A DNA stretch of 62,862 nucleotides, counting the filler, from Klebsormidium nitens (taxonomy: Eukaryota; Plantae; Klebsormidiophyceae), in the NCBI GenBank assembly GCA_000708835.1. It is 7 parts of 7 records of this genome, joined end to end, with 100 filler letters (N's around TTAATTAATTAA, not from the genome) between each part and the next. Parts side by side here need not be neighbours in the genome. Positions count along the whole stretch, not along the records: positions 52,634 to 60,206 come from DF237022.1; 6 more parts are not named here. One strand, written 5' to 3'. The notes below the pieces were generated by a model, which saw only the letters and a program-made list of their open reading frames with translations, had not been told where the DNA came from and did no database searches. Positions within the stretch are counted from its first letter, which is position 1. Every line of letters starts with the position of its first letter. Positions 5,871 to 62,862 of this stretch are shown one piece after another. The translations under genes and the position numbers were made by a program.

Positions 5871-6449
5871 GNNNNNNNNNNNNNNNNNNNNNNNNNNNNN
5901 NNNNNNNNNNNNNNNTTAATTAATTAANNNNNNNNNNNNNNNNNNNNNNNNNNNNNNNNNNNNNNNNNNNNTCATACCGTGGTAGGTAGTACGGTAGGTA
6001 GGTCATACAGGCCTCGAGCGGTCCATTTGTCGAGTCGACCGACGGGACTCACACAGGCCTACCAAAACAAATTGTGCAGACTCCAGAGCAAAGCCGATGC
6101 AATCGAAAATCCTTGTCGAAACGCTGAAGTAATCGGCGGCATACGGTACGGTAGCGATCTCGTAGTACGTGCGAAGAAACTGACATGCGACGACCTAGTA
6201 TGTCGACATGACAAACAGATTTCGCAATCTCTCACCGGTATGATTTGGATGAACCGGTCATGCAGCAAATGATTGGATACCGCCCCGGGGTGCACTGTGT
6301 CCGGCTAGGCCGCGCAGCTAGGCTCCTAGCTGCCGCGCGCGCCGCCACGCGGCATGCGGCTCTTGCCTCTTGCGCCAGTGGCCAGTCGGACCGGGCCCGG
6401 GCGGGCTGGTGCAGTTCGGGGACGAATCCTGCGCTGTGCTGCGTCGTTA

Positions 6450-6552
6450 GTCGGACTTCAGATCCGTAGTCGGACTGACGATCAATGTGGTTGCAGCAAG
6501 TCGGACTAACGGCGCCCCAGAAGCCAGGAACGAGCTTGTGAAGTCCGACTAA
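6450..6552. repeat. Cluster of AGTC[G/C]GACT quasi-palindromic motifs, probable TE subterminal repeats
   Basis: GTCGGACT at 6450, 6469 and 6500, and an inverted copy AGTCCGAC at 6542. Two copies are followed by AAC(G). Confidence 0.45.
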
Positions 6553-45000: not shown

Positions 45001-45014
45001 CCAGGAAAAGGTAG
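39073..45014 (+). CDS. Single-pass membrane protein: Pro/Thr/Ala-rich extensin/AGP-like stalk, ALE2-like ectodomain, TM helix, short non-kinase tail
   Basis: An RRLLQ motif is followed by a long P/T-rich exon (39073-~40190, frameshift near 39660). Phase-consistent exons 42080-42255 (DCPNAC...TCDCVLPTIVEL...EVADGLNLTAAQ), 43023-43254 (...LFGDYSVIQILPPG) and 43656 onward (TM GVVAGIVAGAIFGIGGLLFFVSFASVV then RRRR) follow. The tail exon is ~44627-45014. The middle exons (40200-41700) are not fully resolved. Confidence 0.6.
40084..40910 (+). repeat. Degenerate ~110-130 bp (paired ~240 bp) tandem repeat carrying AG|GTA motifs
   Basis: (C/T)AGGTA at 40084, 40189, 40314, 40548, 40659, 40790 and 40899. 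Units 40615-40670 and 40858-40910 align, as do 40490-40560 and 40730-40800. Confidence 0.55.
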
Positions 45015-46565
45015 GCAGTCAAGTTGGTCTGGTTCTCTTAGAAGATGAGAGATCTCAGGCCGGGCCGTTCGCATAGGCTATGCTTGAAAGTATGGCTTGG
45101 TGAAGAGAACGTTGTAGCAGCGGTTGGCACTATCCTTGTTAGATTGACGTGTGTAGATGATGGCACACAGCTTGACAAAATGAGGCAGTCTTCTTGGCAC
45201 TATCATGCATCAGGTCATCAGCCTTAGTGCCAAGTTATCTGGCGGAAGGTTGTTGTTGACATAGGAAACCGTCCGTAAGCCCAACTTTAGCGTGCTGAGT
45301 TACGAAGTCCTCACTGAGTCAGCGGACTAGACGTCTGCACCTCGTCTGATTGACATTGAAAGATGGAACAATCTCAGGTAGGACACGAACGCCGTAAAGT
45401 CTTGTTGGACCTTAAAGGACGTTCTTTGTTTGGCAATCCTGCCAGCTTTCGAGGGTTAGCAAACAAGCACATGACTCACCGGACCTTCACACCAGTTCAG
45501 TTGTGTTATCAGTGAAGTTATTTTCAATCGACGACACTGGTTTTCTCAAACATTTTCGATCGAGCTAGTATCATGCCAGGGCCGCGGCTTCTCGGACTGT
45601 GAGACTGAAGTTGGACCCGGCCATGCATGCACAATATAGCTTTGAATGCTTCAAGTAGGATTTTTGTACTTAATACCTTGTCGGCTTCATGCATCATTGC
45701 ATTCAATCCCCAGGCTCGCTTTATTCATGCATTCGCCTTGCTTAAGTCATTCATTCATCTTGGCCTCCGACGGTCCATACCCAATGATCAGTTATAGTAC
45801 CATTCATGCATTCCGTAGCATGATGCACCTGCTTTTACTGCATGAGTCAATCATTCTATATTGCGCTTCGCACGTACTGCTATTTCGAATTAAGGTCAAG
45901 CTGATAATCTCAGTCCGATCTTGATACATCATTCACGTCAAGGTTGCACAGTAGCGATGGTTCGTATGATATCGGTGACTGCTTCAACCAAACCTGCAAA
46001 GTTTAGCTCCCCTCGACTCCGCACCAGTCCACCCAGGTGATTGCCTCATGGCGCTAACACAACTTCCAAGATCTGTGCATGATTGGCACACGTGCCTGGA
46101 CGTTTGTACGATACAGTTAGGATTTCGTGTAAGTTGATTATAGGGTTACATGTATGGGAACCCACATATGTACATCATTGAATCTTGACTGGACGTTGTT
46201 GGATCCCTCGTTAAAGGTTGCACTGCACTCTAGCCGTCCTGAAATGTACGGTAGGAGATTGGTCGTCCTTCGAGTCCGACGGTGACGGTCACTAGTCATC
46301 CTTCAGTGCTCAAGCTCGAGTGATTGGCATGATTGCAAAAGTAATCGGAGCCTCTGGCCCGTTGCGCCTTCCCAGAGTCCAGACGGAGCTAAACTTCAGA
46401 GAGCTCGAAAAAAGTATTTACCCATTCGCGGAAGGACGCACCGGGACCCGGATCGGGCAGTATGGGGAGCACACTCTTGTAATTCTCACGTTATTACTAA
46501 AATACACAGCCACCGACATACAAGAGTTACATTCATGATCAGTAGATCAGTAACCTCTTTAAGCG

Positions 46566-49500
46566 CTAAAAGGTATAAGCGGACCTGACGGGGTTCTCCA
46601 CACCCGCATCTCTAAGGATTCCCTCGTCCTCACTCCTATCTAACGCTGCCCTAGTAAAGAGGAAAGGCTGGCCAGCAATCTTTTGGAAGCGTCCCACGAG
46701 CACACCCACTAACGACTCACCCTCATAAACTGCTTCCCACAGCACATTGCAATACTGTGCCGATAGGCTCGTTAATGACACCACGATGGACTGAACAAAG
46801 ATCTGCTCGTCGATGTAGATTCTCGTTGCCCTTGAACTTCCCACGACATACAACCCGGTCTGGAACACCACTTGAGGGAGAGCCTCGAGCAGCATCTCAA
46901 CGGACACCCGAGCGTCGTGATACCGCTCAAAGCTGACAACTTCCTCCCCCCAAGCGAGGTGAAACCCAAACTTTCCCACGACAGCAAGCACGTCCTGGAC
47001 AAGCACGCCTACTACGCCGAAGGGCAGTAGCACAAGGGCAAGAAGCCAACGGTGCGGGGCCCTCGCATTCCTAGCCGGGTGACTATCTGGAGAAAACTCC
47101 GAGGGCGGAGGCCAGAGCCATATGAAGCGCATTCCGCTCCATCTAAGCGCCGGACGCGTTATGGAAGTCCAAGTCAAGGTGACTGCATATGCCCCAACGA
47201 TGAAGGGCGCGCATATGGACGCCAAAACCACCCACATCGGCCACGCCCCCACCACCTCTTTCAAAACGAAGAGGTCCGTGACTAGATCGACGACAGGCAG
47301 TACGCCCAATGCCGCTCCCCAAACGTAGAGTCCGGCATATTTCCAGCTGCAATTCGGAATGACAACATTTACAGGACGTTTCGCTGACAGCAATGAGGTT
47401 CGTTCTAAAAAGGTCAAGGTCGGGCAGTCCTTTAGTAAGCAGCCACTACACGCCTCAGTCAGCAGCAGGTGTTCCCTAAAGGTCAACAGCAAGCTTCCGT
47501 TCGAGGACTTGCCAGACCAAGCCAGTAGTGGGTAGTCTTAGTGACGTCTCCAGATGGATTGCACAGTACCCGGGACCTTACGAACGCAAAGTCCTACTGC
47601 CCCGTCCTTTAAGGGATTGCAAGCGCCAAGGCATCTACTACGGTAGTGAAAGACCCAGATCAAGGGACCGACTCTGGCAAGCTGATGCTCTGAAAAGCCG
47701 CTTTGCTTTCACCCTTCACCCAGCTTGCAGTGTCTAATCCAGACCTACGAGGACTAGATAGGACACATTTTGGAAGGCCTCCGAACAATCTTGCGACTTC
47801 AGCCAGTGTCCACCAAACGCGGCTGATGCTTTGAGCATCCTATGGTTGAACAAGCCAGGGTGTGCGAATGCCGGCCTCCCTGCAAGCTGCTGCTTAAGCT
47901 GACAGACCCTCAGCTGAAACGCTGGGCCGTTTTGGAGGCCATACCCAACACAAAACGCGCTCTCACCAGTCTCGACTCGTCGACAGGCCTGTGAATTGAG
48001 ACAGGCACCCGCGAGAAGGTGGGGTGAGCTGGCTGATTGAGATGGAGTTAGGTGCCAAGCGCGTGAACATTTTGGTTGAGGATCTAGCTGAAGTGCCTGG
48101 GTAGCTCGTATCTCACTCGTATATCACTGACCTGGCACGCGTCCGTCGGGTTACGTAAGCGTCATCAGTATAAAGTGGAAGCACATTCAACCTACCTGCG
48201 AGAGTCTTGCTCCTCTTGAAGATCGCCGTTTGGCCGCTTCTGACGCCGCCATCGTGCCACCAAAATAATGGCGCGCGTCGCCAGCAGCAAACCGACTGCA
48301 AACGACCCGAAGACGATTGCAGCGACCCTCTTGGCTTCGGGGTTACCGCACAGGTTGCCCGCCTGAACCCGCGTGAAACCCACCCCGGTATACGCTCTCC
48401 CGTCCGGGCCCAGATCGATGTAGTCCACGAAGTTGGGATCCGTCAAATCATAGGTCCCCTTGTTGTTCTTCAGAGCGTTTGTGAAACGCTGATTGTCATC
48501 ATAAACGGGTTCGGGAAGGTCCCCGTCCAAGAATACGGAGATCTTGTGCAGGCAGATATGACGCCTTGTGCTACGCAATAACCTGGCCCCCGTGCCCCGC
48601 AAGCTCACAACGCAGCCCGTGTTGCACGCATCCCAGAAACGGATGCGCTTGAGACGCGGGTTTGGGTCCGTCAGATTGACAATCTTGCAGGAGCTAGGCA
48701 ACGAAGAAAGATCCAAAGCCTCCGTGGTTTGATCGCCTAAGCCCAGCTGGAGGAGGTAGATATTGGTCTGCTTTGCAGAACGGGGCGGCTGGCAGGGAAG
48801 TCCCAGCGACCTGAGCTGCTGAAAGCGAGACAGGTTGACCCTTTCGCACGATGTCATGGTAGAGGACAAGTCGAGGTCTAGGAGGCCAGTCAGACTGCCG
48901 AGCTCGGAAGGAATGGGACCAGAAAGGTCGTTGCCGTTAAGGGTAAGGGTTTCGAGGCTCGTAAGTTGGCCGAGTTCGTGGGGAATACTGCCTGAGAAGC
49001 TGTTGTTGTCAAGGTACAGGTCTTTTAACTTAGCAAGGTTGCCTAGCTGGGAAGGAATGTTGCCGGATAGATTGTTAAAGGACAGCCAGAGGACGGTGAG
49101 GTTTCCCATTTGGCTAAATTCAGGGGGCAGGGTGAAGAAAAACTTGTTGTCGTGGAGCCAAAAGTCGGTGAGGCTAACAAGCTGGCCGAGCTTGGCCGGG
49201 AGGACGTCTGAAAGACCGTTGGTGGAGATATCGAAGGTTTGGAGGCTTGTAAGTTGGCCAAGCTCGGGGGGAATGGCACCCGTAAGGTTATTGTTGTAGA
49301 GGTAGAGGTGGCGGAGACTCGACATATTGCCGAGCTCAGAAGGGATTGTGCCAGAAAGACTATTGTTCTTGAGGACAAGGTAATCAAGGTTTGCGAGGTT
49401 GCCAAGCTCGGGGGGAATCAGGCCGTGAAAGTTGTTGTCTTGGAGATAAAGGTATCTGAGTCTGGACAATTTCCCCAGCGGAGCAGGAGTTGCACCGGAG

Positions 49501-50012
49501 AGGTGGTTGTTGTACAGGTAGAGGTGTTCAAGGCCTGTGAGCTGGCCAAGCTCGGGAGGCATGACACCCCAAAGACGATTATTGTCAAGGGAGAGTCTAT
49601 TCAGCTGGGCAAGCTGGCCAAGCTTAGGAGGGATGGGGCTGGAGAGACCGTTGTAAGAGAGGTCCAGGTTTTCTAGGCTCTCGAGTTGGCCAAGCTCGAT
49701 TGGGATGGCTCCAGAGAGGCTATTGTTGTGAAGGTCGAGGACTTTGAGATTGACAAGCTGGCCAAGCAGGGGAGGGATCGAGCCGGTCAAGTGGTTGTTG
49801 GAAAGATCGAGGGCAGTGAGGTTTGTTAAGAGCCCTAATTCAGAAGGAATGGGCCCGGTAAACCCCATACCACTTAGACCGATGGTGGAACGCTCTGAAA
49901 GGCCTCCTCCCACCAGCATGCTGATCTCATCGATGGTCACACACCGCACTATACACATCCATACCCACCCGGAGACGAGGAAAAGAAGAAACTCCTTGCC
50001 GGTAAAGGCCAT
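46566..50012 (-). CDS. LRR receptor-like protein fused to an XK-related-like multi-pass membrane domain
   Basis: Exon 50012-48196 encodes a signal-like N-terminus (MAFTGKEFLLFLVSGWVWMCIV), ~14 plant-type 24-aa extracellular LRRs (LxxLxxLxLxxNxLsGxIPxELGx) and a TM helix. A phase-2 GT-AG intron 48195-47347 joins it in frame (DSR-S-WKYAG) to exon 47346-46566, which contains VDLVTDLFVL, EMLLEALPQVVFQTGLY and SIVVSLTSL. Confidence 0.75.
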
Positions 50013-51686
50013 GTTGAGCCGCACGCCTGCAGACAAACACATGAAAGTGTCAATGACCACCATCCATGCTTAAACGGTGGCTAGCAAGACAATCAAAGAA
50101 TAATTTGTAATGCAATTATCATCACATCCAGGTTTTCAAAACAGCTCAGTCCCGACTAGCTACAAGTCCCTCCAAGCGAGGGCTCCGCATGATACGGGCA
50201 ACTATCAAACTCAATGAGCTTAGATTCCAAAGTCAAATTTTGATAGGAAAATGCTTTTGGCCAAGAGAAGCAGGAGTCGGACCAATCAAACAGAGGGTGA
50301 GACATACAGGAGTCCTCAAGAAGAGCTAGCATGACGCCAACCACCAATGGTATGCCCGCATGTGAAATGCGCATAGAGCTGACATGTGCCTGTCCTGCCA
50401 CTTGCAAGTGATCTTTTTGTAATAGATCACTGAAGAGTGCTAGTAATATTAATCATTGTGAAATTCTGCCAAAGGCCCGAAGAAGGTATGACCCCAGGAC
50501 AGAAACAGTGGAACGGGGGGGTCGGAAAGAGTATCAGCTAGACAGCTGAAGCAAGCTGTGCAATTTCCCCCCGATGTCGCTGCATGACAGGTCTTAGTTG
50601 GACTCTTAGGAAGTGGGCTTCCAAGAGGGTTCCCCCTAAAAGAGGGGACCAAGCGGGCAACTTCTGCATGTTCAAACCAGCTGGACTTTCTGGTCGCCGG
50701 CCATATCCTTCCCCAGTCTTGGCACCAATGCAGAGCGCAACATTGCAGGCCAGCTCCATCCAAGGTCAGAACAGCATATTCCAGCACGTTAAGAACAAGC
50801 GTAAGCCCTTTCAAGAGTCACCAACGCGCCGGCCTCTGCCCCCCTATTCCGACTTGACGGTGTTCGGCAAGCAGGTCCTGAATCTAGCAGGGCCTAAGTG
50901 GTCCAGAGGCTTGGGGTGCACGCCCCATGAACGGTCTCAAATGCGAGGGGCTACCAGGCGATAATTTACAGCGGTCCGTATAATAAGAATTCCAAGCTTC
51001 CAAGTCCTCGCTTTAGAGAGTCAGCTCAGGCTACTACCTAAAGTACAGGACCACAAGCTTCAACACATTGCAAGCTGCAAGTTGCTGCAGGCCGTCGGAA
51101 AGGCCGCCTTGTTCTCAAGGCCTCTTGTCATCTCGTCCTCATGCACCACCCTGTGAAAGAATCAGGATTCAGCAGTGAGCACTGTGTGGCAGCTGTTCTT
51201 TGGTCAGCTAGCTGTTCAAGTTGGGTTTCAATTTCTGCCTGGCCGGGAGACTTTTGGCAGGTTGACCACCAATTTAATACGGTACTTTTGACGTCATGCC
51301 GTAAAACTAGGCTCTAGGTAGTAGGCACTCCCTTTTACAAGTTTTAGCAGTGATCGAGTCTGTTTGAGTCTGTGCTGCCATTTGATACCGGAAGTTTGGC
51401 CGGGCTGTTTGCGCAAACAACTTCCTCGTCAGGCCGCCGGCGCCTGCTCCGGGAGTCCAGTCCCGGCGGGCCCACGTGCTTAACGCCTAGTCTAGTCTAG
51501 GTAGGTAGTACCGTAGTAGGCCCTGCAGTAGCCCCTGGCCCCTGGCCCCTGGGCCTGGGCCTCAGGCTGGCGGCGCCTGGCCCCAGGTCTGCACAGTGCA
51601 CACTGCAATCGTGCCTACTACCGTACCGTACCTCGAAGTCCGGAAGTTCCCAGTACCGAGGATGAATATCGACATCTTGTTCCGCA

Positions 51687-52320
51687 CAGGGGTTCTAGCA
51701 GGATTTTGCCCGGAGGTGCTGTGGCGCCCCTGGGCTTCGCCCCGGGGCGCGGACCAGCCTCCCTGGGGCGCCCAAGCCCCGGCGCCAGCGCCCGGTGCAA
51801 TGGGTATTCCGTCGAAAGCTGTGTTTAACCGAGCCGAATTCGTGCATACCGGTCCTGGGCTTTTGTCTACGGTACAAGCAGTCGGCAGTGGGCACAAAGT
51901 CAAATAAATACGTGCCCCCCTATCCAAAGCAAGTATCGTACCTACTACCGGAACAATTGCTCTTATTGAAGCAATGTTTTGCAGACGAATGGTTAAAGTA
52001 TGAGACTCGGCTACCTGTATGTGTAGAGGGCTCGACTTGGAATCCGTCGCGTTTTCAGTCAATTGTGAGTGCTTATCCCCAAATCGTGGAACTATAAGGG
52101 CTTCTTTAAGTCCTGATTATATCTGCAGGCAATGCTCTGATAATCTGTACTTTAAGAGATCATTTCAGAGTTCCCGGTTGAGGCGGCCTGGATCTAACTT
52201 TCCAAAAGTAGGCGGGACCTGCGGCCCAGGGCGCTCTGGCGCCCCGGGCTTCCGCCCGGGGGCGCCAGTATTTGCCCCGGGGCGCTCTGCGCCCCGTTTG
52301 GCGCCCCGCCAGAACCCCTG
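51687..52320. mobile_element. 634-bp non-autonomous hAT-type MITE
   Basis: Terminal inverted repeats CAGGGGTTCT(A/G)GC(A/G)GG at 51687 and, reverse-complemented, ending at 52320. Flanking 8-mers are GTTCCGCA (51679-51686) and CTTCCGCA (52321-52328), a 7/8 match. GC-rich GGCGCCCC/GCCCGGGG subterminal motifs occur in both arms. Confidence 0.8.
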
Positions 52321-52633
52321 CTTCCGCAGATTCATCAGCAGCTGCCAATTGTCATGCTCGTAGCCTTCAAGTTGTAGCATGCCCATTGCGCCGGTGCGGG
52401 CCCCGGGGCCCGGCGTGAATAACCGGTAGCACGCCAAAGTACCTGGCACTTGGTGCAATGATGGCGCTGAAGGGCCGCGGCAGCGCGGCCGCGGGCCCCC
52501 CGGGCCCCGTGTGCGACGTAACGGTTTTTTTTTNNNNNNNNNNNNNNNNNNNNNNNNNNNNNNNNNNNNNNNNNNNNTTAATTAATTAANNNNNNNNNNN
52601 NNNNNNNNNNNNNNNNNNNNNNNNNNNNNNNNN

Positions 52634-52928
52634 GGTGGCATGGCTGCTGACGTCATCAAGGGGGCCGCTCTCAAAAGGTACGTGAAAACCTCGGACACTC
52701 GGACACCTTGGTTCCGTCAATTACAGTAGATTATTGGTGGCAAGGTTGCTGTCATTAGAGAGACCGTCTGTCAATTGAAGGTGCTCCCAGAACTCGGACA
52801 CTAGGACACCTTCGAGCCGTTGGTTACAATAGATTATTGGTGGCATGGTTGCTGACGTCATCACGGGAACCGCTCTTAAAAGGTTCGTGAGAAACTCAAA
52901 CACTCGGACACCTTCGTGCCATCTGTTC
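52634..52928. repeat. Three degenerate ~102-bp tandem repeats
   Basis: Units start at 52634, 52736 and 52839. Each begins GGTGGCA(T/A)GG(C/T)TGCTG and contains ACACT(C/A)GGACACCTT; the first two end TAGATTATT. The array may extend into the gap. Confidence 0.85.
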
Positions 52929-52997
52929 AAGTGTGTCCGTTGTTTATGTACTTAGGGCTAGTGCTTGGACCAAACAAGATCATATTCCGACCTTGCA

Positions 52998-53750
52998 ATG
53001 GAGCAACTCTCTGATGGTCATACGCTATGCCGAGCCGTTGGGGTGACCTTCAAGAATAGACAAGCTGCGGTTCGCAACCTGAGGATCGGCCAAGAGCTTG
53101 TGCTTCTTAAGCACTTGGGGAACGGCTTCGACTCATATGCAATTGATATCTTCCAGTTGGCAGATTGCAGCATGCCACTCGGCTTTATTGGACGCGATGA
53201 TAAGCACCACAAGGTTTTTGAGCATGTTTGTGCGGGTTCGGGGTTGCCAGCAAGAGTCGATCGTATCAACCGAGGTAGGGGCGGTCGCGGGCCATGGGGT
53301 TTCACAATAGCGATCGCAGACTCTGCAGACTGCAGCAAGATGGCTCCTCCTCTAAATCTTACAAACGTTTGCCAAATTGTGATTAAGAGACCAGAAGAAG
53401 TACGGGGCTTGAAAGAAAAATGAGCAAGCGTGTGACACCTCTTTTGCCGAACGTATTGTAGCCACACGATGGACGCAATCTTGGGCTATCGTCCTCCAAC
53501 CATGTTTGCAGTCGAGCAGATGGATCGAGCCGTTCTTGAGAGTGCCAAGACCGCAATAGTGAGATCGTACAGAGAGTTTGGGATGCTTGAAACGATTTTT
53601 GATCCAGCAGCCCTAGCGGGAATTCGCGCCCTGGCAAAACCGTTCAATCTGCGTCACATCACTAGAGCGCTTGTGCGATCCCCAATGCTGAAGGCTTCCA
53701 CTCTTACTGGGATTGAAGCGGCATGCATGGACCATTTGCTGTCAAAGTGA
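52998..53750 (+). pseudogene. HIRAN-domain protein interrupted by two in-frame TGA codons
   Basis: AVGVTFKNRQAAVRNLRIGQELVLLKHLGNGFDSYAIDIF...LGFIGR matches the HIRAN pattern (VG.F..RQ...G..L.L..E..N.YD..AI...LG(F/Y)). ORF 53469-53750 is in the same frame after GAA AAA TGA GCA AGC GTG TGA. Confidence 0.65.
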
Positions 53751-54287
53751 GCTGGCGGGTTGCCCTTAAAAACGCGTCTCGGGCTCAACGTCAACCAAAG
53801 AAGCTGCGGTTGAAAGAACTACGGCTCACGGCTCCCTCTCACAAAGGAGAGTCGATTTCTCCCATCGGTCATACAAGTATCAAAGCCCGTTCTCCATCGA
53901 GTCCCGGATATGCCCCTAGTATGGTGTGGAGTGATGCGCCAATCTTGGATTTAGAGGCGCTTGCAAATTCCAACAAGGTTCGCCATGCTACCGAATCTTT
54001 GCGGGAATCCTCTCCCAGATAATTGAACCTCTGAAAAGGCACCGTTCTAGAAATTATGTACACTCATATTCAGGTATCTGGCAATACTCTGTTATCGGCC
54101 GATAAAAGAGGGGCGTTAAGGCCCCCAAGCCGGATTGTAGAAGCTTTCGCGCGTGAGATAACCATGAAAAGCTCCTAGGCGCACCAAAACTGTGAAAGGA
54201 AAGATAAACACGAAGATTCGGTATCTGAGCACTCCGCGGCTAGATGCCGTTCATCTTTTTTTTCTCAGTATCTAGATACCCCAGGGC

Positions 54288-55340
54288 ATGGCAGCTTCGG
54301 ATGCAACCACAAAGGTTATAAGAACCTCGACGTCAGCCGAACGACTGCTTCACAATATCTTTGATGACTCGACACGAAAGCCGTACACGGTCGAGCAATA
54401 TTGTGCACGGGTGATGCGCCTCTTCAAGAGCATGCATGCTCCAAAGGAGGATTTCGAGAATCTCGATTGGGTCAGATCTACGAATGAGATCATTGCGTTT
54501 CTTGGCAATGCTTATGGCAACAAACTACCAACTCAAGCAACGAGCATAAGCCCTCTCCTCGTCATAGCTCGGAAACTATGGCCCAGTGATCAACGGACCT
54601 ACGAGGCACTTTTAAAGAGATACACTGCCGTTAGAAAGGCCATGGAAGATGCTCGGCCCGCCCAACATATGTCAGAGCGAGAGGCAAAGAACTGGAAGTC
54701 GTTGGACGATATCAATCAACGCCGCGTCGAACTTCAACGGAAGATCAATCGATCCATCGCGCCCAAAAAGCCGGAAGAGGTCACGGTTGCGGATAAAGTA
54801 ACGCTTTGTCGCTACCTCGTGCTATGTTTATACACCCAGATGCCTGCGATCCGTAACGACTGGAGCAATCTTCCCATTGTGCGCTTTGAAGAGATTGGGA
54901 GCACCGCCGCACGTGAGCTGATGTCCGGATCCCGCAACTACCTTCTGGAATATGCAAAAGGAAGCTATAGGCTCCATCTCAAGTCGTACAAAACCGACAA
55001 GACACACGGACCACATGTTCTTGACATACCGGTCCGGCTTGGCAACGTGATTGCGGAGAGTCTCGCTATCTTCCCGCGAAAGTACCTGCTCAGCCGAATG
55101 AGGACACCAGATGCTCCGATGGGATCAGGATACTTGACGAAGTTCTTGGCTGCCATTTATCCAGATTCGAATTTGGGTTCGTGCCTTTTAAGAAAAATCA
55201 CAGTCAGCAATGCTATGAAAGATGCCCCTAGCCTCTATGAAAGGGACCAGCTGGCAAAGTCAATGTTGCATACGGCACCAATAGCGATGCGCCACTATGA
55301 GCTGAAGTACAGACCGGACGGGTCTCGGATTCAATTTTGA
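54288..55340 (+). CDS. Tyrosine recombinase/integrase (350 aa)
   Basis: Catalytic residues appear in order: R (MPAIRND), K (SYKTDKTHG), R of a variant HxxR (GSCLLRK), H (AKSMLHT) and Y (AMRHYE). Intronless. Confidence 0.75.
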   Translation: MAASDATTKVIRTSTSAERLLHNIFDDSTRKPYTVEQYCARVMRLFKSMHAPKEDFENLDWVRSTNEIIAFLGNAYGNKLPTQATSISPLLVIARKLWPSDQRTYEALLKRYTAVRKAMEDARPAQHMSEREAKNWKSLDDINQRRVELQRKINRSIAPKKPEEVTVADKVTLCRYLVLCLYTQMPAIRNDWSNLPIVRFEEIGSTAARELMSGSRNYLLEYAKGSYRLHLKSYKTDKTHGPHVLDIPVRLGNVIAESLAIFPRKYLLSRMRTPDAPMGSGYLTKFLAAIYPDSNLGSCLLRKITVSNAMKDAPSLYERDQLAKSMLHTAPIAMRHYELKYRPDGSRIQF

Positions 55341-55429
55341 GCGGTTTCACTCCGTCCACTTGCCACTTGAAAGCTCGTTTAGGACACTTCGATACCTGCT
55401 GTGAACAAACTCATTGGAACGGTTGGTTT

Positions 55430-55735
55430 TCAGGAATCATCCAGCATGTTCAAAGAGGCCGTTTGAGGCATGTCAAAGCCAGCATCGATCAGTCGTTGAG
55501 TTGTAGTCTTATGAAGCTTCTTTGTTCGACCACTCACGTACCTCTGATACGCCTTGCGTATCAAAATTGCTTCGTGATGTCGATAATAATATGCCCTCAT
55601 GTTAGCATTGTGCTGCTCCGAATGAGTTTTTGCGTATTCCCTGTGCTTTTGGCAAGCTTGACACGGGCATGGAGCATGCATATCAGAGGTCCTGTCAGAG
55701 GCATTTGAAAATCTCTCGTGCATTTGATGGACCAT
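55430..55735 (-). CDS. Small basic hypothetical protein, divergent from the primase
   Basis: ATG at 55735 (alternative 55681) gives CPCQAC...NMRAYYYRHHEAILIRKAYQRYVSGRTKKLH. It fits between the YR and primase genes without overlap. Confidence 0.5.
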   Translation of the reverse strand: MVHQMHERFSNASDRTSDMHAPCPCQACQKHREYAKTHSEQHNANMRAYYYRHHEAILIRKAYQRYVSGRTKKLHKTTTQRLIDAGFDMPQTASLNMLDDS

Positions 55736-55844
55736 CTCGAAGTCCTGCTGATATGTGAGATTATTTTTTGCTGTGCCTTGACCGCGGTCCGGATTTGAAG
55801 TGCGTTTGATTGACGCACTTTTTCTTCTTGCGTTACACAAGAAC

Positions 55845-58607
55845 ATGTCTGCACCAGACATGGAACAAAACAGCGCCCCAGAACCTCGGGCCACAAGAGA
55901 CTCCAGAGCCCTAGGGCCGAAAGCCATCAGAGATGAGATCCAACGACTGTGTGAGGTCGGCTTATTTGCTATACCGATACGCATGTACTGGGATTCTGGC
56001 AAGGACAAAAAAGATGCCGAGGGGAAGATAGTCAAACCCGCAAAAGCCAAAAAAGCTGCTCAATTTCCAACCTGGGCGCATATCACGACGCGGGAGTCGT
56101 GGGAGACGGCCATCAATGAAATAATGCAAGATTTTCGAGGTGCGAATGGAATTGCGATATTGACAGAGGCTAGCGGCATCATGGGAATTGACATTGATGT
56201 CACCGGCGATAACACAAAGAATCCGGGAACCGAACTTTGGAATCGAGTTGTTGCCATCCATGGAGAACCAGTTACACTGAAAGCAAAGAGTGGATCAGAT
56301 GGACTCCATTACTATTTCAAGGCAAATTCGCCGGGCCTTAAACGCACACGTAACTTTTCTACTATGAAGGTTGATGGAAGGGTTTTTGGGGTGGATGGTC
56401 GTGGCGTAGGAGGGGTGATGTTCGCGCAACCATCAAGCTACGTTAATGGCCAAGGTGAGCTCAAGACGTACCAGTGGCTTAACGGCCCGCCAAGCTACGA
56501 CGCATGCCAAGATATGCCTCAATGGCTCGCCGAATTGGTAAACAACAACGCCGGCGAGTGCGCTGTTGCGAGTGGCAAAGGAGAAGAACATGCACTTCAC
56601 GAATCTTTGGTGGAGCGCAATAGCACTGGCACCAACTCTCTACCGGCAACTTCGGTAGTTGGCGAGTCCCATGAAAGATCAACAGCTGTCAAAGAGGTAC
56701 AAATCCTGCTTCAAACAAAAACAAGGGAAGATGGCAGCGCGCGCTTTGGAGGCTTGACAATGCTTCCAGAGGGCAATCGTTGCTTCCAATTTCGTGTGAA
56801 CGGCCCGAGGACTTGCTATCTTGGAAAAGAGCACAATGGATCAAACAACTTCACGGTGATTCAAGGATGTGCAGGAGACCTACGGAATGTATACTACCAC
56901 TGTTTTGGCACGGCTTGTCAAGATGACAACACGAGACTCCTTGGAGAATTGAGCATCTCGGCTGCTCTTGAGCAGGCATCCGTGGACGAGTTTGGGATTC
57001 AAGATCACATGATTACTTGCGAGCGCAATCTCGAAGCACGATTGTCGACGGCGTTCATGAAGAGCATGGTGTGCCGAAGTGACTATGGTGCCGCCTCAAT
57101 CTTTGTCAGGTTGTTCCAGCACGACAGACGAATCGTGTATGACGCGGGAAGCTTCTGGATTTGGGATGGAAGAACGTGGATTGCGTGCGATTCGGAAGCG
57201 ACTCTGATAAAGAGCGCATTCATGTGCCACATGGGGAAAGTGAAAGCCTTTTGGATGAAGCGCATTGCAAATGAAGGTCGTGAGAAGATTCTTGAGGCAG
57301 AACGCACACGAGACGCCAGCTTGGCACAGCTCCTCGGTGCGAAGATGGACAGCCGATCGAAAAGGACCGCCGAGACGGCCATCATGAGAACTTTCAAAGC
57401 TTCAGAGAAGGACGCCGATCAATGCGCAAGATGGCCGGGACCTGACGTTGAATCGGTGCCAATTGCGACCCGATGCTTGACTCCTTTTAAATCTATGTTG
57501 AAGCTTGATGGCTTTGCCAAAGAGCTCAATGCGAGTCGCGACTATCTAAATACCACCTCTGGCGCAATCCATTTACCAACAGGCAAGCTCATACCACATC
57601 ATCCAAGCAACATGCTCTCGAGAGAGACCGACACAGAGTATGTCGGACCCAACTATCCGTCACCGTTAATCGATGAATACATGTTGCAGATTCAAACTCC
57701 GGAAATCATTGAGGTCCTACAAATGACGCTTGGCTACGGCATCACCGGACATTCAAGAGAGAAGCAGTTTGTCATCTGCTATGGGCCTTCGAATTCTAGC
57801 AAGACAAAACTTCTTGCTCTTACAAAGGCAGCAATTCAATCGTATTTCTGCACAATGGATCGCGACTGCGTGATTGGGGTTGGTGTGAGGTCAGAAGGGG
57901 CCGCCACACCACATCTCTTGAAGCTTGAGGGTGCGCACATTGCCGTTTTAGAAGAGACAAAGCTAGAAGATGTCTACAACGGTTCCAACGTCAAGTCCAT
58001 TGCGTCCGGTGAAGGAGGTATGAGCGTACGAGGGCTGCACAAGCAACCCGTAGAGATCACGTGCCGTTGTTTGCCAATCATTTGCACAAATTCGCTTCCG
58101 AGATTTGACGTCAAGGATAGCGGCACACTGAAGAAGCTTCGCGTGTTTCCTTTCAAGCGAGAGTTTGTCGAGCGGCCGAAGCCCAATACAAACGAGCGAT
58201 TGATTGACTATCAGCTTTCTGAGAAGATTGAAAGTCCGGAATGGAGGAAGCAAATGCTTGCGTGGCTTGTGCGAGGGAGCATGGCGTGGTACAAGAAGGG
58301 GAGTTTGCCGCTGGTTGAAGAGCTACCTCAGGACATGCAAGATGCTCTCAAGGGCTACGTGGAAGCCAATGATCATCTCAACAACTTCATTGCCGATCAT
58401 TGTATTAAAGGTGAATATAAGGTGGCCCATGTGGATGTTCTCAAGCAAGCGTTTGAGAATTACATCGGAAGACGAGATCGTCCTATGATGGTAACCGAGT
58501 TCAAAGTGCTAATGGATGGCGTCAAAGACACCACATTTGTAAAACAAATCAAGATTCGCGGGCGTAACACGACCGGATATCGAGGAATTAGTTTGAGGCG
58601 ATGCTAA
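55845..58607 (+). CDS. Bifunctional primase-polymerase (Prim-Pol) fused to D5/P4-family SF3 helicase
   Basis: 920-aa intronless ORF. Prim-Pol motifs are GIAILT...GIDIDV, SGSDGLHYYFK and DGRGVGG..FAQPS. A Cys/His zinc-binding segment (C..HNGSNN..YYHCF..C) follows, then D5_N (FWIWDGRTW, LNTTSGAIHLPTG). SF3 motifs are Walker A YGPSNSSKT, Walker B IAVLEE and motif C IICTN. Confidence 0.9.
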   Translation: MSAPDMEQNSAPEPRATRDSRALGPKAIRDEIQRLCEVGLFAIPIRMYWDSGKDKKDAEGKIVKPAKAKKAAQFPTWAHITTRESWETAINEIMQDFRGANGIAILTEASGIMGIDIDVTGDNTKNPGTELWNRVVAIHGEPVTLKAKSGSDGLHYYFKANSPGLKRTRNFSTMKVDGRVFGVDGRGVGGVMFAQPSSYVNGQGELKTYQWLNGPPSYDACQDMPQWLAELVNNNAGECAVASGKGEEHALHESLVERNSTGTNSLPATSVVGESHERSTAVKEVQILLQTKTREDGSARFGGLTMLPEGNRCFQFRVNGPRTCYLGKEHNGSNNFTVIQGCAGDLRNVYYHCFGTACQDDNTRLLGELSISAALEQASVDEFGIQDHMITCERNLEARLSTAFMKSMVCRSDYGAASIFVRLFQHDRRIVYDAGSFWIWDGRTWIACDSEATLIKSAFMCHMGKVKAFWMKRIANEGREKILEAERTRDASLAQLLGAKMDSRSKRTAETAIMRTFKASEKDADQCARWPGPDVESVPIATRCLTPFKSMLKLDGFAKELNASRDYLNTTSGAIHLPTGKLIPHHPSNMLSRETDTEYVGPNYPSPLIDEYMLQIQTPEIIEVLQMTLGYGITGHSREKQFVICYGPSNSSKTKLLALTKAAIQSYFCTMDRDCVIGVGVRSEGAATPHLLKLEGAHIAVLEETKLEDVYNGSNVKSIASGEGGMSVRGLHKQPVEITCRCLPIICTNSLPRFDVKDSGTLKKLRVFPFKREFVERPKPNTNERLIDYQLSEKIESPEWRKQMLAWLVRGSMAWYKKGSLPLVEELPQDMQDALKGYVEANDHLNNFIADHCIKGEYKVAHVDVLKQAFENYIGRRDRPMMVTEFKVLMDGVKDTTFVKQIKIRGRNTTGYRGISLRRC

Positions 58608-58681
58608 TCTAGTGGTTCGTTCAAGTTAGCAAAGGCCGCAGAGAAGTCCAAACGTAGCTCCGACGTATTTGAGCAAGTGGT

Positions 58682-58921
58682 GGGGGGGGAGGTAGGTGAG
58701 GTAGGTGGAGGTAGGTGCTTAAAAATTGTTCGTTTTAGGTTTACTTTATGCTTATAATATAATAAAGGTAGGTAGGTATGTATTATAATATACACTATAG
58801 CAAATGTTATTTTTGTGCCATTGAAAGCACAAAAAGTTTGTCTTTGGCCAACAAAAAAGCCGTCTACCACCTACCTACCTACCTCAAAAGCGTTTCTACC
58901 GATCACCTAGCCCCCCCCCCC
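58682..58921. promoter_or_regulatory. Putative replication origin: inverted AGGT/ACCT iteron arms around an AT-rich core
   Basis: G8 followed by AGGTAGGT x3 (58690, 58699, 58709) and AGGTAGGTAGGTA (58766). AT-rich core ~58720-58860. Inverted arm CTACCACCTACCTACCTACCT (58864-58884) then C11 (58911-58921). Starts 75 bp after the helicase stop. Confidence 0.5.
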
Positions 58922-59033
58922 AAATTGCTGATCGTCTACCAGACTTTTCCACGCCATCTACCAGTACGTTGCTTTTCAAAGTAAGGATCAAAAACGCGCC
59001 GCCATCCTGTTGGCTCTTTGCAAGACACCTACC

Positions 59034-60206
59034 CTATCCTTGCAATAATACGGCGCGCATTTCAATTGTCCACAAGGCCGCCGCAACCGCGATGCTAAGC
59101 TTCGCGTCGTCGACTCGTCTCAAAGAGCTATTGTAGCCGCCGAGCAGCAGAGGCAAGATCACCATGAAGCTCTCAAGCCCTGAATACCACCCCAAACTCC
59201 TAAACCCCTTTAGGAAGCTGTTGACTGACTCCACGGCCGACGTATTGACCCAGTGAAGGGCTGCGTAACTCTCCGGGCAATTCGAGGGGCCGCACTTGTG
59301 CACTTCGGATCCAGCCTTCGCGTAGTGGAACCTGTGCATGGAAAGGTGTACATCAGTCTTTATTCGTAGAATAAGAGTTCATGTACACGTTTCGATCCAA
59401 GGATCACAACTCTCAGATCCGGCGCAACTGCAAATGAGTTTCAGTGTACACGCAACATTTAGATCGATGACTAAAGGCTCCACACAACAAAGACTGCAAA
59501 TACGTCCCAATGTACACGAATAGTTCAAGCCCCATTCCAGCATTTGATCGGGCAACTTCTTACCTGTCGACAATAAATCTAACGTTGGCAAAGTGGGCCG
59601 GTGCTCGTCGCAGGCAGTAGTTGCGCAGCGCACATGCGTTGTTGTACACGAGGTACTGGGGCAAATCCTCGCGTTTCATCCGCGTGTAGAGCACGACGAA
59701 CGCGTCCCTGGGGCTCTCCCCGCGCAGCATCGTGTGGAACCCGTATATCACTCTGTGGGGGCAACAAAACACAAAGACCCCCCGACTCCTATTCGGCCGC
59801 TTGCTCGCGTTTCCCTTCTTCCGTGAGAGCTTTCCGGCGCCCTTGATCAGCCCAAGTACGTTATCGGCGTCCCACTCCGTCATTGACTTTCCGGTGGCGC
59901 ATTTGAACTCTTCCGAGCTTCTGCTCCGGCCGTCCAGGTGCTCGAAGCTGCTATAGTGCGGCAAGCCCCGCTTCTGCTCCCAACCAGGAAGGCTGTAGCA
60001 CGCCAGGGCGTCCTGCTCGGCCCGGAAGCGATGCCCTGACGGAAGCGGATGCAGCTCGCCCCCCTCCTCGTCTTGCCCAAGCCTCTCTCTCAGAAGCGAG
60101 CGCTCGTGATCGCTCATGGCCTCCCATTGCTCCGCGCTCGGCTCTAACCTCTCGACCCCTGGGAGCAGCTCGTTCGCCAACCCTCGAGCCTCGTCTAGCC
60201 CTCGGC
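59034..60206 (-). mobile_element. KDZ (Kyakuja-Dileera-Zisupton)-type transposase, 3' part
   Basis: Exons >60206-59564 and 59331-59034 are joined by a phase-2 GT-AG intron. They read GVFVFCCPHRVIYGFHTMLRGESPRDAF...YNNAC...FIVDR|FHY...HKC...VNTSAVESVNSFL, the motif order of KDZ-type transposases. The 5' end is lost in a gap. Confidence 0.7.
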
Positions 60207-60306
60207 NNNNNNNNNNNNNNNNNNNNNNNNNNNNNNNNNNNNNNNNNNNNTTAATTAATTAANNNNNNNNNNNNNNNNNNNNNNNNNNNNNNNNNNNNNN
60301 NNNNNN

Positions 60307-60927
60307 CCATCGTGACGCGATTGTCATTCGCACCTGCACTGGAGCTCTGACTGAGAAACTCGACCAGACCAAAGAGCCAGTCAACTTCGTGCTAAACCCA
60401 GGGACCGCCGATGAACTTACCGTCAGAGCGCACGTGGTGATTGTCAACCAAAACGTGCCTGACACTTTGATTGGCATGAGTGTCATGGGACCAGCTGAGC
60501 TCACGCCTGACATGCGCAAGAAACGCGTCAAATACTACGTCGAGGATGACCAGATTACGCGCAAGTCCTTCTTGCCGTGCAAGTTTCCCATCGACTACGC
60601 CAGGTCGCCACTGCAGGCGTACCAGGCGCTTAACGCTTACACGGGATTCATCGTTCCCGTTGTAAAGAGCCCGCGCAATGCGGAGGATGTCGCAGTGACG
60701 CGCGCGCGCCTTGCTGACCATCAGACGAAGCTGCTCCCTGAGATGACTGAAATCTTCGATCGCAGCATTCGGGCCCTGGCTACACCAGAACGAAAGCCGC
60801 CTGTGATTAGCGACCCAGCTTACCGGCACTTGAAGCCGTTAAACACGTCGTTCGTCGACAAGAAAGACGTGCTGGCCACACCTGGCCCAGGCATGGTGGT
60901 CAGCCAAGAGGTTGCCCACTTCGTGCA
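60307..60927 (+). mobile_element. Retroelement polyprotein fragment (aspartic-protease-like region), DNMT-less copy
   Basis: Open frame containing VIVNQNVPDTLIG, which resembles the C-terminal DxLIG part of retropepsins. It is paralogous to 61250-61683 with mostly synonymous differences, then jumps to VSQEVAHFV, matching 62724 onward. Confidence 0.6.
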
Positions 60928-61249
60928 NNNNNNNNNNNNNNNNNNNNNNNNNNNNNNNNNNNNNNNNNNNNNNNNNNNNNNNNNNNNNNNNNNNNNNNNN
61001 NNNNNNNNNNNNNNNNNNNNNNNNNNNNNNNNNNNNNNNNNNNNNNNNNNNNNNNNNNNNNNNNNNNNNNNNNNNNNNNNNNNNNNNNNNNNNNNNNNNN
61101 NNNNNNNNNNNNNNNNNNNNNNNNNNNNNNNNNNNNNNNNNNNNNNNNNNNNNNNNNNNNNNNNNNNNNNNNNNNNNNNNNNNNNNNNNNNNNNNNNNNN
61201 NNNNNNNNNNNNNNNNNNNNNNNNNNNNNNNNNNNNNNNNNNNNNNNNN

Positions 61250-62675
61250 CACTCTGATCGGTATGAGTGTCATAGGACCGGCCGAGCTCACTCCCGATAT
61301 GCGCAAGAAACGCGTCAAATACTACATCGAGGAGGACCAGACGGTGCGCAAGTGCTTCTTGCCGTGCCAGTTTCCCATCGACTATGCCAGGTCGCCGCTG
61401 CAGGCATACCAGGCACTTAACGCTTACACGGGATTCATCGTACCCGTTGTAAAGAGCCCGCGCAATGCGGAGGACGTCGCAGTGGCGCTTGCGCGCCTTG
61501 CTGACCATCAGACAAAGCTGCTAACTGAGATTACTGAGATCTTTGACCGCAGCATTCGGGCACTGGCTATTCCAGAACGAAAGCCGCCCGTGATCAGCAA
61601 CCCAGCTTACCGGCACTTGAAGCCGTTGAACACGTCATTCGTTGACAAGAAGGACGTGCTGGCCACACCTGGCCCAGGCATCGTAGTCGTTGAGTTGTTT
61701 TCTGGCCTCATGGCCACTACCGAGGCGTTGCTTCGGCAGGGAGTTACCGTCAGAAAGGTGTATGCCTGCGAGATTGACGCCAAGACCCGCAAAATCGCTG
61801 CTAAGCGTCTGGCCGTCTTGCACACCTTATTCCCACAGCTCCTGAGCGCAGACGCTATTAGAGACTGTCATGACCACTTGGGAGACGACGTCAGCAAAAT
61901 CAACAGAGGCCACATGGCCCAGCTGGAACGTCCTGACCTTGTGGTGGCCGGATTCCCGTGTCAGGGATTCTCACGAGCCGCAGAGTACGCCCTAGGCTTG
62001 CGCGATTCGCGAACCAGGCTCTTCGACGATGCCATCCGAATCGTGCACCTCATCAACAACATTTGGGGCGGCTCTGTGGGCTACCTGTTTGAAAACGTTG
62101 ACGCCAGCGATCACCCGCAGGCAGACGTACGGGCAGAGTTTAACACCGTGGTGAAGGGAGTGCTCGGACACGGCTTCGCATTTGATGCCGTGGCCGTTGG
62201 CTCTTACGCGCATCGCCAGCGCCATTGGTGGACCAACCTGGCCCCAAGCGCCCTCATGTGCGAAATGGTTGAGAAGAAGTTCAAGCACCGCAAGCCGGAT
62301 CAGATTGTCCAGAACATTCTGCAACACGGCCACCGGGCTCAGAACGCTCAGCACGCCCGCGCACCTGGAAAGGTCTCGGTCAACGTGCGCGGCCAGCCGC
62401 TTCGCGCTCTGTCCACGTTTGTCACGGTGCGCGGCTCTCACGCCTATCACCCTGGACAGCAGAGCATGATCCAGCAAGCCAACGGATTCTGGGATGAGCC
62501 TACGGCTCTGGAGCGCGAGCGCGCTCTGGGATTCATGGACGATACCACAAAGGTTTGCCCCTCTATTTCAGAGGCTGACCGCAGAAGAATCCTGGGAAGC
62601 ACCATGGACATGCACGCCCTGCAGTTCATCATTGGCAGCATCCAGTGCTTCCAGTTCGCCTTTTTCACCGATTGA
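61250..62675 (+). CDS. Retrotransposon-encoded DNMT3-like C5 cytosine methyltransferase fused behind a protease-like region
   Basis: Motif I VELFSG, II ACEID, IV VAGFPCQ, VI LFENV, VIII RQRHWWTN and C-terminal ERERALGF...LG.TM. Intronless, with the 5' end in a gap. The frame stays open after the single TGA to the window end. Confidence 0.88.
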
Positions 62676-62681
62676 CAATTA
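62673..62681 (+). promoter_or_regulatory. Stop-codon readthrough signal TGA-CAA-TTA
   Basis: The stop is followed exactly by CAR-YYA (CAA TTA), and the same frame continues for ~62 codons (QLARRNAP...PGMVTSQEVAQFVQ...) to the window end. Confidence 0.7.
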
Positions 62682-62862
62682 GCCCGGCGCAACGCTCCAG
62701 TCCAGGAGAGTTGTGACCGGATACCTGGCATGGTGACCAGCCAAGAGGTTGCCCAGTTCGTGCAGAGCGGACTTCTGCGCTGCCGCACCCTTCGCTCCCA
62801 GCCACAGGACCCCAGCACCGTGTTGGGACAGCCACCTGAGCTGGGGGGGGGGGGAAGTCAGG

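Follow-up and report, generated by a model that had tools for sequence, protein, structure and literature searches.

A probable iteron-type replication origin, by descent, behind the primase-helicase gene of a multicopy PLV-type module in the nuclear genome of Klebsormidium nitens

The window, by which we mean the whole stretch of 62,862 nucleotides from Klebsormidium nitens (assembly GCA_000708835.1) that was analysed, carries eukaryotic genes in its left two thirds (WLM-PUB, UFD1 and splicing factor 1 (SF1) fragments), and the host DNA is eukaryotic nuclear. Two gaps (52534-52633 and 60207-60306) bound an element of which 7.6 kb lie between them. From left to right these hold a 102-bp array, a HIRAN-like ORF, a 93-aa ORF, a recombinase, a 206-aa antisense ORF, a primase-helicase, a set of repeats and a KDZ transposase gene. 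Just to the left of the element the minus strand encodes an LRR protein that looks intronless and has a hydrophobic segment at its C-terminus (48192-50063), and a 308-aa multi-pass membrane ORF (46566-47492); these may be host genes or cargo. Past the right gap lies a C5 cytosine methyltransferase ORF (60389-62675; PF00145, 6e-9), which we take to resemble the methyltransferase-carrying retrotransposons known from Klebsormidium; in its region a piece of 439 bp is duplicated (90%), and a repeat of 41 bp stands at 60887/62724. Near the start of the window, three GGTAGGT stand beside a gap at 5981-6003, downstream of a zinc-knuckle ORF (4598-5428), and a second polarised repeat set is found at 6276-6700 (four TCGGAC, two GTCCGA, a 36-bp spacer, 42% AT). 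The repeats in 5981-6700 are perhaps the end of a retroelement.

The array that adjoins the left gap (52634..52923, no strand assigned) consists of three multicopy units of about 102 bp, 71-85% by self-BLAST. It contains GGACAC repeats and, in two of its three units, a TGACGTCA box, presumably of the bZIP/CRE type. Many variant units were found in sequencing run X1, with joints going back 102, 194 or 284. Possibly it forms the element's left part, as a regulatory or subterminal array. It is followed on the plus strand by a 152-aa ORF (52965..53423), HIRAN-like by a weak match (E 0.29) to PDB 3k2y, which we take to be a HIRAN structure, and with weak PHROG matches besides, and then by the 93-aa ORF (53469..53750, plus strand). 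The 206-aa ORF on the minus strand (55430..56050) overlaps the helicase start and had no match in Pfam, PHROG or NCBIfam.

The 350-aa ORF at 54288..55340 (plus strand), which belongs to a multicopy family, resembles the tyrosine recombinases of PLVs, virophages and giant viruses and is taken here as one of PLV/virophage type. The residues R189, K235, R302, H328 and Y337 are kept in 16-18 of the 19 alignment rows, and 22 homologs were found. The only Pfam match was a weak one to the integrase SAM domain (E 0.075). From a poor structure model (pLDDT 57) the top ten rows in the PDB were all Cre-type (best E 0.014), and Foldseek returned giant-virus proteins from the viral library at E 1.7e-5 to 1.4e-2, among which two bear the name integrase or Tyr recombinase; the Atlas result gave Preplasmiviricota clusters at 0.98. 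VIA-align of the same weak model gave nothing above Z 7, and the alignment search gave no viral locus, phage record or PDB sequence and no ORF among 247 loci. In one pair of clusters, P0032 and P0039, the longest contigs have the same length (38027), which is only a hint that recombinase and helicase are located together.

Beyond the repeats, and convergent on them, is the 3' part of a KDZ transposase gene (59034..60206, minus strand; PF18758 at E 0.001, below cut-off). A GT-AG intron of 232 nt is predicted in it at 59332-59563, and the spliced frame is open. As Asn stands in this copy in place of what we take to be the usual Asp of the motif, the copy may be inactive.

The primase-helicase gene (55845..58607, plus strand) is an intronless open frame of 920 aa, or 935 aa if the GTG at 55800 is used. 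Its domain order is Prim-Pol, a putative Zn-binding segment, D5_N, an SF3 helicase and a predicted winged helix, and it matches PF09250 (1e-11) and PF08706 (2e-12) in Pfam and PHROG 1156 (2e-62), and scores above the cut-off of TIGR01613 (P4-family primase). The AlphaFold2 model of the last 391 residues, made from an 89-row alignment, has a mean pLDDT of 91 and ends in the order helix-strand-helix-helix-strand-strand, which is the winged-helix order. The predicted winged helix comprises residues 315-388 of the model (58374..58595, plus strand) and is the likely iteron-binding part. By Foldseek the model matches SaPI5 PriRep (7ola) with E 1.6e-16 and TM 0.64, and viral D5-type primase-helicases as well.

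The algal helicase keeps the Walker A Lys, the Walker B Glu and the sensor Asn, all invariant across the alignment. At the arginine finger it has Lys, whereas 74 of 74 prokaryotic relatives have Arg, and a Ser precedes the Walker A Lys, as in two of these 74. The Lys finger is an evolved variant, because it is common to six of ten algal paralogs, but from the sequence the ATPase activity is in doubt. These paralogs (P0002, P0004, P0005, P0007, P0034 and P0046, down to 58% identity) make up a Lys-finger subclade with the Walker A form G-P-[TS]-N-x-[AGS]-K, and a second algal subclade keeps Arg. A further relative of the primase-helicase, P0089, is fused behind RNA-polymerase Rpb1/Rpb2-like segments. 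The named homologs are K. nitens proteins and reach 81% for the primase-helicase and 94% for the 350-aa ORF. In a FastTree tree of 86 helicase domains (377 columns; those of the listed matches as far as P0105 that had enough coverage, and 25 loci), midpoint-rooted and with weak deep branches, the clade in which the algal helicases fall, as at least two groups, lies apart from the phage loci and consists of Prim-Pol-D5 proteins, mostly unnamed. The CpG observed/expected ratio is 0.99 for the helicase and 1.08 for the recombinase, so that no clear decay by region is seen.

The repeat structure occupies 240 bp (58682-58921), and its G8 run begins 74 bases past the primase-helicase TAA (58605-58607); the distance of 75 bp given in the original prediction was thus right within one base. 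The layout which that prediction had described, a G8 run and repeats, an AT-rich core, and repeats closed by a C11 run, is read directly in the sequence. The G8 run (58682..58689, no strand), whose length varies between copies, marks the outer edge of the left arm and is followed by the left iteron set (58690..58717, plus strand), three AGGTAGGT that start at 58690, 58699 and 58709 and are thus spaced 9-10 bp apart, about one helical turn. Then comes a first AT-rich segment (58718..58765, 81% AT), a candidate melting site, and within the AT-rich core two inner, overlapping AGGTAGGT in forward orientation (58766..58777, starts 58766 and 58770). The original prediction had not noted this overlapping pair. 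A second AT-rich segment (58778..58863, 70% AT), which includes a small 9-bp hairpin at 58810-58835, separates the opposed iteron sets. The right set (58864..58909, minus strand) is in reverse orientation, with CTACC at 58864, 58871, 58875, 58879 and 58896 and CACCTA at 58904; three overlapping ACCTACCT starting at 58869, 58873 and 58877 here form a (CTAC)4 run. The C11 run (58911..58921, no strand) closes the right arm.

The arrangement is real and non-random. Within the 426 bp between the convergent stops, all five GGTAG lie left of 58776 and all eight CTACC lie right of 58863, five of these within 58691-58900 and three further at 58936-59029. Eight of the 11 AGGTAGGT/ACCTACCT sites of the whole 62.9 kb sit in the 240-bp structure. 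The AT content is 72% over 58718-58863, and the top 100-bp window in the core, with 76% AT, is the maximum of 6029 such windows (mean 47%, sd 7.5%). The score for opposed hexamers, that is for polarised repeats, is 6 at the structure; none of 3000 dinucleotide shuffles reached 6 and 33 reached 4-5. In the window a score of 6 occurred in nine of 2340 sliding windows, four at the structure and five at one site near 6300-6700 that is not AT-rich. The left set has a periodicity of 9-10 bp over 3.1 repeats, with the right set opposite in orientation, which does not fit a simple microsatellite, meaning a pure head-to-tail repeat in one orientation. The arms of the inverted repeat are 16-18 nt long with a complementarity of 89-94%. 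Folded as single-stranded DNA the structure has z = -7.5, and none of 200 shuffles was equally stable, but a low fold energy is to be expected wherever repeats are opposed. Rfam gave no matches in 50000-62862, and a promoter and terminator scan gave no signal above chance level.

Further we compared the locus with Logan contigs from the sequencing runs X1 (possibly the source sample), X5, X6, X7 and X8, with a finer comparison over 58520-59080. The full 7.6 kb is represented in contigs of X1, X5, X6 and X7, many of them diverged pieces, hence the module is multicopy. X1 contains exact contigs of the structure along with diverged ones. Among the latter, record 3 (26 differences and 2 gap bases in 236 nt) runs from the helicase end, of which it has 46 nt, through the left set to the inner iterons. 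The core and the right set are found in record 5 (8 differences), and record 8 (19 differences, 3 gap bases) joins 45 nt of the right arm to 41 nt of the KDZ end. The paralogous contigs meet at 58774-58797, and it should be noted that records 3, 5 and 8 may all represent one second copy. Record 7 fits 58849-58889 only and has flanks unlike those of the locus on both sides, which makes it a more distant copy that has retained the right repeats. In X6, from another study under the same species label, we find the same variants as in the diverged X1 contigs, and X5, from another study under another label, holds three low-depth pieces of the structure region. X8 had no contig matching 58520-59080, with 72% of the run covered. 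The conservation in other copies that the original prediction had asked for is therefore seen for the linkage of helicase end and repeats (record 3) and not for the lengths of the homopolymers: G8 is 2 bases shorter (at 58681) in a paralogous contig, and C11 is broken by substitutions or insertions at 58910, 58914, 58916, 58917 and 58919. None of the 19 variable sites listed in 58682-58921 falls in the 52 iteron bases, where 4.1 are expected (p 0.008), a count which rests on 40 of 84 variant rows with contig ends excluded and is to be read as a hint. Taken together the paralogous contigs make it less likely that the structure is a free microsatellite, that the element terminates at C11 or that the homopolymers have a role. 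Among the joints listed, which come from contigs only, there was no extrachromosomal or empty-site joint. On 52634-60206, C>T and G>A occur at 394 and 408 places in X6, three times the 127 and 119 for A>G and T>C, with 311 and 322 against 258 and 257 in X1; the excess in X6 may reflect methylation-driven decay or library damage.

To see how the layout behaves behind other D5 genes we scored the interval -100..+250 around each D5 stop for opposed hexamer sets and took other windows from those loci as controls, with detector thresholds chosen after the algal locus had been seen. In a first set of 76 loci (111, less 11 without a C-terminal match or with a short flank and 24 duplicates), opposed sets were present at 38 of the dereplicated stops against 69 of 1179 control windows, and at 31 against 12 of 1179 when an AT-enriched spacer was required; these values are biased upward, the set having been seeded with loci whose repeats had already been seen by eye. 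Relatedness to the algal protein was the basis of the second set, which comprised 98 loci (136, less 9 without a match, 3 without a C-terminus, 2 at a contig end and 24 duplicates). Here 23 loci were positive against 242 of 3796 control windows (Fisher p 8e-8), and 16 against 53 of 3796 with the AT-enriched spacer (Fisher p 5e-12). In both sets together the layout was found at 61 of 174 D5 stops, with control windows at about 6%, and half to three quarters of the D5 loci score 0 with the detector.

Nine positive loci were checked for their gene content, of which seven carry terminase or portal genes, one an integrase, and one had no match in 29 ORFs; the checked positives with such genes are therefore prokaryotic viruses or satellites. 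The four viral D5 proteins that score best against the algal profile (L112, L113, L114 and L122) are on giant-virus-type, AT-rich contigs; three of them score 0 and L112 gives a weak match without AT enrichment. The repeat word changes from lineage to lineage, as a co-evolving pair of binder and site would give. The opposed AGGTAGGTAGGT pattern had no matches in viral contigs and the left-arm pattern none in 247 loci, hence the algal word is specific to the algal family. When the algal alignment was used for scans, the metagenome matches were all distant D5 loci (21 loci, 21-29%), the viral scan gave three loci and GTDB none. Several D5 genes on phage-type contigs (L001, L003, L107, L072, L075, L195, L148 and others) are directly followed by unannotated candidate origins whose opposed repeats are clear, and the word differs from one lineage to another.

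The repeats might serve mainly as a recombination (att) site or element end read by the tyrosine recombinase, with an origin role that is secondary or absent. We regard this as improbable. The order of recombinase, primase-helicase and inverted repeat is that of the elements in PMC11296320, where the accessible text proposes a double role for the repeats, and the arms, at 16-18 nt and 89-94% complementarity, are of a kind that would suit such a site. What one would normally expect of a recombinase site is a core of 6-8 bp with a short arm on either side, whereas here multi-copy repeats surround about 150 bp of AT-rich DNA; the same layout also lies behind the D5 genes of tailed phages, and the diverged copy of record 8 runs unbroken past the right arm and into the KDZ end, as far as 59074, with like pieces in X6. 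The element terminus that the original prediction offered beside the origin is hence not borne out, and the structure is probably not the end of the element. Rather less credible is that the structure is the terminal or subterminal region of a KDZ transposon inserted beside the helicase gene. The KDZ stop is only 112 bp from C11, three more CTACC follow at 58936-59029, and a diverged contig joins the right arm to the KDZ end, but in another one (record 3) the helicase end and the left arm are joined just as well. Paralogous contigs have no break at the repeat, and self-BLAST found no partner repeat elsewhere in the window, though the other, 5' end of the KDZ gene is lost in the gap. In X1 the summed contig depth is 205-630 at 59119-59202 against one contig (depth 19) over 58919-59070, which hints weakly that the repeat flank is missing from most KDZ copies; contig depth is not copy number, and a record filter was applied. 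As to known KDZ ends, the part of PMC12730594 available to us describes TIRs in Zisupton, CA..TG ends without TIRs in Kyakuja, and a 7-8 bp target duplication.

A chance origin, with (GGTA)n microsatellites and G/C runs arising in the AT-rich 3' ends of convergent genes, that is in a terminator or polyadenylation region, is only a slim prospect in our view. The structure does lie between two stop codons, its right arm holds the microsatellite-like (CTAC)4, an unrelated (GGTA)n repeat in X5 (record 10) matches 18 bp of it, and GGTAGGT occurs three times at 5981-6003 as well. This is hard to bring together with the perfect polarity of the five and eight copies and the 3000 shuffles that fell short, with left copies that are 9-10 bp apart instead of in pure tandem, with record 7, which keeps the repeats while its flanks diverge, or with the recurrence of the layout at distant D5 stops. 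The suggestion that the G-rich arm acts as a G-quadruplex, or the whole as a cruciform signal, in place of protein-binding iterons, has the G8 run, the GG-containing repeats and the fold z of -7.5 in its favour, and we give it next to no weight. The canonical pattern of four G3 tracts was not found in the structure, which has a G2-type run only; other copies have a shorter G8 and an interrupted C11; and opposed repeats would give a low fold energy anyway. The quadruplex part of the original prediction is therefore unsupported.

With a probability of roughly 70%, we suggest that the 240-bp structure is by descent the cognate iteron-type origin for a PLV-type module of recombinase and primase-helicase that is multicopy in an algal nuclear genome. 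It stands directly behind the stop codon, has opposed penta- and hexanucleotide iterons with at least two per side and an AT-rich centre, and these features of a SaPI origin, along with the predicted winged helix, the recurrence at distant D5 genes and the linkage of gene and repeats, favour the cognate SaPI/P4-type origin put forward in the original prediction. From SaPI biochemistry we infer that the C-terminal winged helices of the helicase hexamer would read the GGTAG repeats, with one hexamer loaded per side and no loader needed. Melting of the AT-rich segments would follow, the fused Prim-Pol would lay a primer, and a host or helper polymerase, which would be needed because none is encoded between the gaps, would elongate it. 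Excision and integration of the element would fall to the tyrosine recombinase. That the origin in this algal copy still fires is a possibility against which we lean.

More tentatively, and with the odds in our opinion clearly against it, we speculate that streptophyte algae harbour capsid-less self-replicating nuclear elements in which the PLV-type recombinase, the Prim-Pol-D5 initiator-helicase with its iteron origin, and the KDZ gene form one unit. Such a unit would excise, amplify from the iteron origin by means of a self-loading initiator-helicase, and re-integrate. If true, phage-satellite replicons would have a eukaryotic counterpart in it, and primase-helicase modules of PLV type would have their first origin defined by sequence.

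Many PLVs and virophages have a primase-helicase in place of a protein-primed polymerase, and the locus gives a short, concrete candidate site with SaPI-origin anatomy for modules of this type. On how replication starts in them, the searches turned up one paper, in preprint and journal form, which goes no further than proposing the inverted repeats as origin (PMC11296320). If the origin reading is right, initiation without a loader by an SF3 helicase that reads iterons, as in phage satellites, operates or has operated on eukaryotic chromosomes too, and opposed repeats at the D5 stop would be a simple origin marker for thousands of endogenous PLVs. In the literature searched, which did not extend to subscription journals and bioRxiv supplements, we found no iteron-type origin described on such a eukaryotic element and no paper combining Klebsormidium, tyrosine recombinase, primase and helicase. 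The word 'iteron' was absent from the PLV and virophage papers among the matches listed, and in the search on eukaryotes and D5 it occurred in a geminivirus review only.

Among known systems the SaPI origin offers the closest anatomy. As described in the available portion of PMC9371898, it has 6-12 penta- or hexanucleotide iterons directly behind rep, at least two per side and opposed, with an AT-rich centre; the Rep winged helix binds the iterons, the hexamer loads without a loader, and SaPI Reps bind and melt their origins without ATP. A cryo-EM preprint, as far as its accessible text goes, places winged helices on successive iterons with distortion at AT-rich spacers (bioRxiv 10.64898/2026.10.17.759575). 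The algal structure resembles the SaPI/PICI origins with a PriRep5-type protein in standing behind the rep stop, in its opposed short iterons and AT centre and in its size of about 240-300 bp, and its protein, like SaPI5 PriRep, is a primase fused to an SF3 helicase with a predicted winged-helix end. It differs in the eukaryotic nuclear host, the intron-bearing neighbours, the iteron word GGTAG/AGGTAGGT, the Prim-Pol primase, the PLV-type recombinase and the Lys finger, and we saw no phage-interference genes. A SaPI or other phage-inducible chromosomal island is out by the eukaryotic genes, the spliceosomal-type intron and the K. nitens homologs at 81-94%. Thus the phage-satellite frame of the original prediction gives way to a PLV-type module, the host being eukaryotic and the recombinase of PLV/virophage type.

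The P4-family phage and plasmid primase-helicase loci (TIGR01613), as carried by tailed phages and satellites, share the protein family and the layout at the stop, but the helicase part is only 19-25% identical, and the algal proteins fall in the separate, mostly unnamed Prim-Pol-D5 clade. With the Plavaka giant repeats of Amoebidium (PMC11244446, seen in part) the element has in common a eukaryotic host and intron-poor repeated clusters in which tyrosine recombinases accompany a DDE-type transposase; the transposase there is Plavaka and in the alga KDZ, and the accessible part of that paper mentions no primase-helicase or origin. As regards NCLDVs, none of their core genes besides D5 was present among 45 long ORFs, and the best viral D5 relatives are on giant-virus-type contigs; in the NCLDV-marker table for K. 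flaccidum, as it appears in the converted text of PMC5294986, the D5 cell is apparently empty, and symbols may have been lost in conversion.

Endogenous PLVs often carry recombinase and primase-helicase together, according to the accessible part of PMC10120064, whose supplement file 2 includes seven endogenous PLV capsid-gene matches for K. nitens. The algal element, which may belong to the PLVs, has the genes expected of one, namely an integrase (YR or rve) with either pPolB or, as here, a primase-helicase. A PLV capsid, packaging ATPase or protease was found in none of the 45 ORFs of at least 165 aa, in a Pfam search that is weak for PLV capsids and on an element bounded by gaps, and self-BLAST of 44000-62862 against the window gave no long inverted pair, with 7.6 kb between the gaps against a PLV length of 15-30 kb. 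The PLV/virophage end module, for example in the entomopoxvirus-associated PLVs and Gezel-14T, consists of a tyrosine recombinase, a primase-helicase and inverted repeats, the last proposed without a test as both origin and integration site, as given in the part of PMC11296320 at hand. The primase described there is a D5-like AEP, whereas the algal one scores as Prim-Pol (PF09250), and the algal repeat is made of iterons and an AT core, appears internal and has a linked KDZ gene next to it. In its gene order, and in a recombinase nearest to Preplasmiviricota clusters, the algal element is like this end module and is closest to it. The SaPI origin and the PLV end module are each already known; their union in an algal nucleus would give primase-helicase PLV modules a defined origin.
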